Virus record (IMG/VR): IMGVR_UViG_3300014590_000001
Coordinates: 32,001 to 96,000 of that record
DNA from: a virus
Taxonomy: Duplodnaviria; Caudoviricetes
DNA length: 64,000 bases
Strand: one strand, 5' to 3'
Shown here: piece by piece, positions 15,344-15,601 of the stretch
How the letters are laid out: each line of letters opens with the position of its first letter
Position numbering within the stretch: the first letter of the stretch is position 1
Position numbers and translations under genes: made by a program
Notes under the pieces: model-generated
What the model was told of the DNA's origin: nothing
Seen by the model: only the letters and a program-made list of their open reading frames with translations
The model's database searches: none

Positions 15344-15601
15344 ATGTCGGGAAAAGATTTGGAATTTCCAAAAGGCGCACAAGGCGTAGTGCGCAAAGTA
15401 AATCCATTGACAACGTTCTTCATGCCTGAACGTTATCGTGATAACCCAGCGAAAGCTAAAGTTGCAGCGCAGTTTCAAACTCTCGCGTATGCTCTTGACC
15501 GCGATATTGAAGACAGCGCAGAAAAGAGTACAGCGATTCGCAAACTGATTGAAGCGCAAGATTGTATTTTCCGCGCAATCGATCTTAATCCTGATTTCTA
15601 A
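15344..15601 (+). CDS. Small helical protein resembling the Acb2/Tad1 hairpin family (putative immune-signal sponge)
   Basis: SD GAGGAAA. Motif FQTLAYALDRDIEDSAEKSTAIRKLIEAQDCIFRAI. Confidence 0.55.
   Translation: MSGKDLEFPKGAQGVVRKVNPLTTFFMPERYRDNPAKAKVAAQFQTLAYALDRDIEDSAEKSTAIRKLIEAQDCIFRAIDLNPDF

Follow-up and report, generated by a model that had tools for sequence, protein, structure and literature searches.

A jumbo-phage protein with replaced canonical ligand-contact positions, from a large family that very probably branches from the Acb2/Tad1 hairpin fold

The 85-aa protein described here belongs to a large family of small phage proteins, marked by the motif LRKLLEAKDCxVRA, and profile comparisons make it very likely that this family is a distant offshoot of the Acb2/Tad1 hairpin fold. 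Acb2, Tad1, Tad2, Acb4, Sequestin and Lockin are tiny oligomeric phage sponges that disarm signalling immunity. The protein is encoded in the window that we analysed, a stretch of 64,000 nucleotides that is a portion of a 256,657-bp virus record (256.7 kb) with direct terminal repeats; the source is a jumbo phage and, among named phages, stands closest to JA11, JA13 and JA29, jumbo phages of Dickeya (Salmondvirus). An initial annotation had proposed a divergent Acb2/Tad1 member and had assigned it no ligand specificity. The kinship stands at the level of profiles (hhalign probability 94%, P 1.4e-7, clean controls), but the protein falls below the Pfam cut-off and retains none of the four published ligand-contact positions, and we agree with leaving its specificity unassigned.

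The open reading frame lies exactly where the initial annotation had placed it (Table 1), and the residue pattern reported for its product is legible in the translation (F44, L47, A48, L51, S58, E60, K61, S62, A64, R66, K67, L68, E70, A71, D73, C74, R77, A78 and I79). It is not a chance frame, since the protein has close relatives, few in number (72-85% identity, E 1e-27 to 1e-38), and a syntenic homologue in Dickeya phages JA11, JA13 and JA29 (about 48% identity, E 7e-12), and since it keeps all nine columns that are invariant in a 60-sequence family alignment (F26, A48, E60, R66, K67, L68, E70, D73 and R77). The source genome holds a single copy of the family gene. The 57-aa ORF that follows is probably translationally coupled to it, given how closely its ATG succeeds the stop codon of the 85-aa gene; its product weakly matches phrog_17259 (E 0.0013) and has a weak syntenic homologue, gp110, directly after the family gene of Erwinia phage Yoloswag (E 0.02). 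Further weak homologues of the 57-aa ORF occur in Yersinia, Kosakonia and Shewanella jumbo phages. Two-gene cassettes made of a Tad1-like gene and a small ORF have been described in mycobacteriophages (2026 preprint).

The 85-aa gene is located in a tail/baseplate cluster, between structured RNAs, rather than in any obvious early anti-defence island. Behind the 57-aa ORF, about 540 nt of noncoding sequence lead to PAAR/baseplate genes. The order of a 590-aa protein, gap, family gene, gap and PAAR is the same in JA29 and JA13; it is also the same in Yoloswag, except that a coding gene takes the place of the sequence directly upstream. The noncoding sequence upstream of the PAAR gene (15758-16400; PAAR start at 16318) is 81-88% identical to that of JA13, JA11 and JA29 (88% for JA29). 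This stretch of about 500 nt before PAAR is strongly conserved, whereas identity is only about 48% for the proteins on either side.

Upstream of the gene, the stem that the initial annotation had noticed ahead of the ribosome-binding site proved to be real: its core arms and outer helices make up the predicted minimum-energy structure, and it is conserved in JA29 and JA13, with 22 pairs kept in the alignment and two of the 22 changed on both sides. The energy z-score over the whole 96-nt stretch with the stem is only -1.4. Pairing of the hairpin loop TTTCCTC with GAGGAAA, which would occlude the ribosome-binding site, was considered and rejected, the loop sequence being conserved in neither JA29 nor JA13; a riboswitch-like reading is therefore given little weight. 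The region that precedes the gene (14092-15343) spans 1.25 kb without credible ORFs and contains diverged direct repeats of about 320 nt, spaced 307-325 nt, with boxes at 14583, 14908 and 15215 and also at 14806 and 15125. Throughout the window, ARAGORN detected no tRNA and no Rfam model matched at its gathering threshold, so that this upstream "RNA array" is not composed of tRNAs. The motif ATCTGTAAATAG occurs genome-wide in 13 copies at up to one mismatch (3 of them exact), versus 0 for the reversed control, and is probably a phage promoter element that heads both noncoding regions. Since the sole terminator-like site between this motif and the gene is weak (14561-14578), co-transcription of the 85-aa gene from 14096 through the upstream RNA region is plausible.

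Table 1. Positions, within the window, of the 85-aa gene and the features around it
Feature	Position	Strand	Remarks
Promoter-like motif ATCTGTAAATAG	14096..14107	+	Start of the gene-free RNA region; second exact copy at 15795-15806
Conserved stem-loop	15266..15330	+	Directly upstream of the ribosome-binding site; core arms 15278-15291 / 15309-15322
Shine-Dalgarno GAGGAAA	15333..15339	+	4 nt before the ATG of the 85-aa gene; read directly
85-aa ORF	15344..15601	+	ATG start; translation read directly
57-aa ORF	15603..15776	+	ATG 1 nt past the stop of the 85-aa gene

We estimated the size of the family with a full HMMER scan together with a profile search, in which E 0.001 was passed by 7,988 of the 8,000 candidates scored; this count is a lower bound. 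Clustered at 90% identity, the family numbers no fewer than 7,988 clusters and so equals or surpasses in size the published set of Acb2 proteins, which comprises 4,204 non-redundant sequences. Most members are 61-75 aa long and share a signature made of an N-terminal NPIMKFF.Y.HLP and a near-invariant C-terminal LPD.AEKSAGLRKLLEAKDC.VRA. No listed member carries a precomputed Pfam annotation, all of them being labelled "hypothetical", and two PHROGs models that match the family (5120 and 1761) have no assigned function. The 85-aa protein falls in a clade from jumbo phages whose members have a longer, disordered N-terminus and a proline in the F-x-Y motif. In five members from the database the whole unit is duplicated in tandem, which fits a protein working as an oligomer. 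To describe the genomic context, we sampled 120 IMG/VR loci with a back-translated RKLLEAKDC DNA pattern and extracted 119 family ORFs, most of them stand-alone proteins whose motif lies 6-20 residues before the C-terminus. Elsewhere, in Sasquatchvirus-type jumbo phages, a 140-aa protein has the family domain as its C-terminal half (gp026 of Erwinia phage Y3; locus L126, record 17186-17608); it lies outside the tail cluster, in an early-looking region with an Ant anti-repressor, a DNA methyltransferase and primase fragments. A 1008-aa protein with long TPR-like repeats (P0007), which aligned with the final 17 residues of the query through a RAIDLNPDF-type repeat present in 11 stretches, was judged spurious and excluded from the alignments.

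Single-sequence and HMM-versus-sequence scores all stayed below threshold. The 85-aa protein aligns with the Pfam model PF24729 (Acb2_Tad1_hairpin) over profile positions 16-49 of 58, at 15.6 bits (E 0.019), and fails the gathering cut-off of 27. This model is the commonest weak Pfam match in the family, found in 13 of 60 members and in none with E below 0.01, and the JA29 homologue does not match it whatsoever. A phmmer search of the PDB with the 85-aa protein returned no matches, while HMMs built from two family alignments recovered from the PDB only designed coiled coils and Acb2_43, the best natural match of the family HMM being Acb2_43 itself (9ptq) at a sub-threshold E of 0.43. Likewise, hhalign against a narrow, T4-type-only Acb2 alignment gave a probability of 0.4% and no signal. 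That template being too narrow, it was replaced by a diverse alignment, A4, of 32 Acb2 ORFs out of about 95 extracted from IMG/VR loci with the KLEEA.MWA motif. These are bona fide Acb2 proteins: PF24729 is passed by 32 of 32 (best E 7e-26), and the A4 HMM retrieves Acb2_43 (2e-11), T4 Vs.4 (2e-6) and several Tad1 structures (2e-4) from the PDB.

Compared with A4, the 60-sequence family alignment (A3) yielded an hhalign probability of 94.0% and a P of 1.4e-7 over 46 collinear columns, which correspond to residues 38-83 of the window protein and cover the entire hairpin; a 90-sequence version of the family gave 94.8%. The real pair scored 38.9, whereas reversing either alignment gave 14 and 150 column shuffles gave a mean of 8.8 (SD 2.3, maximum 16.4), placing the real score about 13 SD over the shuffled controls. 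The profile comparison with Acb2 that the initial annotation had called for is thus borne out over the whole hairpin. A global alignment puts the family F-x-Y in register with the F-x-Y-H-x-P of Acb2, with a 4-residue deletion. Moreover, phrog_1454 is a match common to T4 Vs.4 and the family, and 29 of the 30 nearest ESM-Atlas clusters contain PF24729, on 14-35% of their members. Hadary et al. took an HHpred probability above 0.9 as their criterion for Acb2 homologues, a value that the family exceeds in the hhalign comparison of A3 with A4. In the portion of their Acb2 tables covered here, RKLLEA is found in 0 sequences and TKLEEA in 495, so that the family was seemingly not counted as Acb2 there. 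Full-text literature searches did not find the motif, and PF24729 appeared as a side mention alone.

Structure predictions agree with this relationship in their overall shape. AlphaFold2 modelled the 85-aa protein with a pLDDT of 84, with residues 1-20 disordered and helices at 21-31 (NPLTTFFMPERY), 35-54 and 59-81; a consensus-type member, P0076, reached a pLDDT of 96.7. In both models a two-helix hairpin is predicted, with a short helix from the N-terminus packed against it, the arrangement that characterizes the Acb2/Tad1 hairpin. Such a monomeric hairpin is a generic fold, and it is too generic for fold searches to discriminate. Indeed, a Foldseek comparison of both monomer models with the PDB gave nothing below E 1. 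When the monomer models were compared with 48,161 chains, VIA-align brought up unrelated helical hairpins of a generic kind, at Z 5.5-7.6. For the window model, Acb2_43 (9ptq_A) ranked 42nd at Z 5.7; its rmsd was the lowest (1.8 Å across 53 residues, identity 19%), and unrelated hairpins scored equally high; for the P0076 model, Acb2_43 was outside the top 50.

Set against known sponges, the 85-aa protein most resembles Acb2 (PaMx33 Acb2, T4 Vs.4 and Acb2_43). Both are small phage proteins of about 60-90 aa, with an N-terminal F-x-Y segment followed by two long antiparallel helices and a common motif core, [LC]PD..EKS....KL.EA......A, and Acb2 forms hexamers, as predicted for relatives in the family. 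They differ in that the M-W of Acb2 helix 2 is an invariant D-C in the family and in that the link from F-x-Y to helix 1 is 4 residues shorter. With Tad1 (SBSphiJ7, CmTad1 and CbTad1), the likeness lies in the C-terminal hairpin, which in Tad1 builds the hexamer; Tad1 is about 125 aa long and has an extra, gcADPR-binding N-terminal domain, whereas the 85-aa protein has only a disordered 20-residue N-terminus. Sequestin (PF21825, crAss001_48) is likewise a short helical phage protein and occurs fused to the family domain, but it is not homologous to the family and is a fusion partner, not a relative.

The main divergence from Acb2 and Tad1 concerns the ligand pockets. PaMx33 Acb2 binds cyclic dinucleotides through Y11 and K26 and cA3 through R67 and T74 (PMC10312549), and Tad1 uses the same R-x6-T pair in helix 2 for cyclic trinucleotides (R88/T95 in CmTad1). 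In the hhalign register, Y11 corresponds to P28 of the 85-aa protein, K26 to A41, R67 to A59 and T74 to R66, so that the protein has neither the Y11/K26 residues of the cyclic-dinucleotide pocket nor the R-x6-T pair for cyclic trinucleotides. At these four positions the family consensus reads Y/F, S, A/P and R, the last of them invariant; where Acb2 has Y11, Y is found 70 times and F 16 times among the 104 ORFs with a readable motif (119 sampled). With all four known positions replaced, the canonical Acb2 pockets are not conserved. An arginine at the T74 position is also found in homologue no. 11 of Hadary et al., a validated Acb2 with activity against type I Thoeris and against cGAMP-CBASS.

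Relatives of the 85-aa protein have already been through a sponge screen. Tal et al. 2025 (bioRxiv 10.1101/2025.07.12.664507) selected at least six family members with an annotation-blind pipeline, which demands that AlphaFold-Multimer predict a homo-oligomer with confidence and that its interface have positively charged pockets; five are listed as "hexamer" and one as "dimer/hexamer". These hexamer candidates of their Table S2 (RKLLEAKDC, RKLLEAKDA and RKLLESKDA) belong to the same family by motif and length. They are consensus-type proteins of 61-93 aa with Y/F in F-x-Y, whereas the window protein has Pro there and an N-terminal extension. All six were negative against type I and type II Thoeris, 3'3'-cGAMP CBASS and the two Pycsar systems, cCMP and cUMP; heterologous hosts were used, with the candidates expressed pairwise, and for the cCMP strain two transformations failed (10.1101/2025.07.12.664507). 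Inactivity towards cGAMP-CBASS and type I Thoeris further sets these relatives apart from Acb2. Several of the ligand tests that the initial annotation had proposed for the 85-aa protein (cGAMP, gcADPR and cCMP/cUMP systems) were therefore already run on six relatives, with negative results. According to Tal et al., only a minority of pocketed oligomers is expected to be sponges (10.1101/2025.07.12.664507); among proteins of sponge families that have been tested, 65 of 84 were active.

Genomic context connects the family to sponges in two ways. First, Table S1 of Tal et al., which lists Sequestin (PF21825) homologues, contains at least 12 proteins with the family domain N-terminal to a Sequestin domain (10.1101/2025.07.12.664507), and in our sample 2 of the 119 family ORFs are fused to PF21825, both above the cut-off (E 1e-14 and 6e-18). 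Sequestin itself, a dimeric 3'cADPR sponge, was found through fusions to known sponges. Second, in 4 loci the family gene has a Tad2-like neighbour at a distance of 28-46 nt (PF11195, E 2e-26 in the one scanned). The source genome has a Tad2-like gene of its own, outside the window (record 99203-99442, minus strand; PF11195, 43 bits, above cut-off), and holds no canonical Acb2, Sequestin or Acb4. In one of the sampled ORFs the family domain is joined to a C-terminal WDGH domain (L198:1928-2788, minus strand; PF25311, E 2e-40), and on another viral contig it follows a domain of about 125 aa that has no annotation (L201:7675-8250, minus strand); both partners may be candidate anti-defence modules. 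TadIV-1 (PMC13243611), considered as a relative, is an unrelated dimer.

That the 85-aa protein is a signal sponge with an anti-defence function is a reading that we hold to be about as likely as not. It would assemble as a homo-oligomer, most likely with six subunits as in Acb2 and Tad1, and the pockets where subunits meet would trap a bacterial immune signal derived from a nucleotide, so that the effector of the defence system would never be switched on. Because the four contact positions are replaced, the ligand would lie outside those bound by the canonical Acb2 pockets, and it would probably also be none of 3'cADPR, His-ADPR, 3'3'-cGAMP, cCMP or cUMP. The invariant R66 aligns with the position at which T74 of Acb2 and T95 of Tad1 contact the phosphates of cyclic trinucleotides at the three-fold axis and, assuming an Acb2-like hexamer, would put basic side chains at that axis. 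An anionic ligand bound there, cA3/cAAG or another oligonucleotide, is on these grounds the leading guess, and a speculative one. A further step, that the family is a hexameric sponge for a signal beyond the targets of known sponges or from an undescribed defence system, would explain the negatives on five systems despite the sponge-like architecture, the fusions and the Acb2 ancestry; we consider it rather unlikely.

The alternative that survives best, possible though doubtful, is that an Acb2/Tad1-type scaffold has been re-used for another job, such as binding a conserved host or phage protein or acting on the flanking structured RNAs. The uniformly negative screen and the replacement of the canonical ligand residues speak for it, as does the expectation of Tal et al. 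that sponges make up only a minority of pocketed oligomers. The near-invariance of the helix LRKLLEAKDCxVRA across very diverse phages fits a conserved macromolecular partner. The site of the gene, between repeated RNA modules and the noncoding stretch before PAAR, is kept in JA29 and JA13, and some relatives lie between genes for the terminase large subunit (TerL) and the portal (8 of the 119 loci). However, the family occurs mostly in phages without such RNAs, and Yoloswag has a coding gene in the place of the hairpin. Domain searches detected no nucleic-acid-binding or other domain, PADLOC gave no match, and Sequestin fusions and Tad2 adjacency are the very signals that revealed real sponges.

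It appears very unlikely that the protein is an ordinary Acb2, using the known pockets to sequester cGAMP-type dinucleotides and/or cA3. Such a protein would account for the profile-level homology and for the aromatic residue that most of the family keeps at the Y11 position, but all four contact residues are replaced in the window protein, 3'3'-cGAMP CBASS was not inhibited by the six relatives, and the family motif is absent from the portion of the published Acb2 list that was covered. That the resemblance is a convergent or chance one between generic helical hairpins, in an ORF without a defence role, is highly improbable: monomer fold searches do return hundreds of unrelated hairpins at equal Z, and the single-sequence scores fall short, but the profile-profile score lies far above the shuffled and reversed controls, the alignment is collinear over the whole hairpin and the N-terminal F-x-Y, and fusions to Sequestin and adjacency to Tad2 tie the family to sponges independently.

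Taken together, these comparisons suggest that the family, so far without annotation, stands beside Acb2/Tad1 as a cryptic sister branch whose pocket has been re-made. It constitutes a well-defined orphan, in which descent from the Acb2/Tad1 hairpin is combined with re-made pocket residues and with Sequestin fusion or Tad2 adjacency. Its genes can carry the label "Acb2/Tad1-hairpin-like, ligand unknown" instead of "hypothetical". Each new sponge is also a probe for the signals that bacteria use, and identifying the ligand of this family could widen the range of known sponge targets or reveal an unrecognised immune signal.
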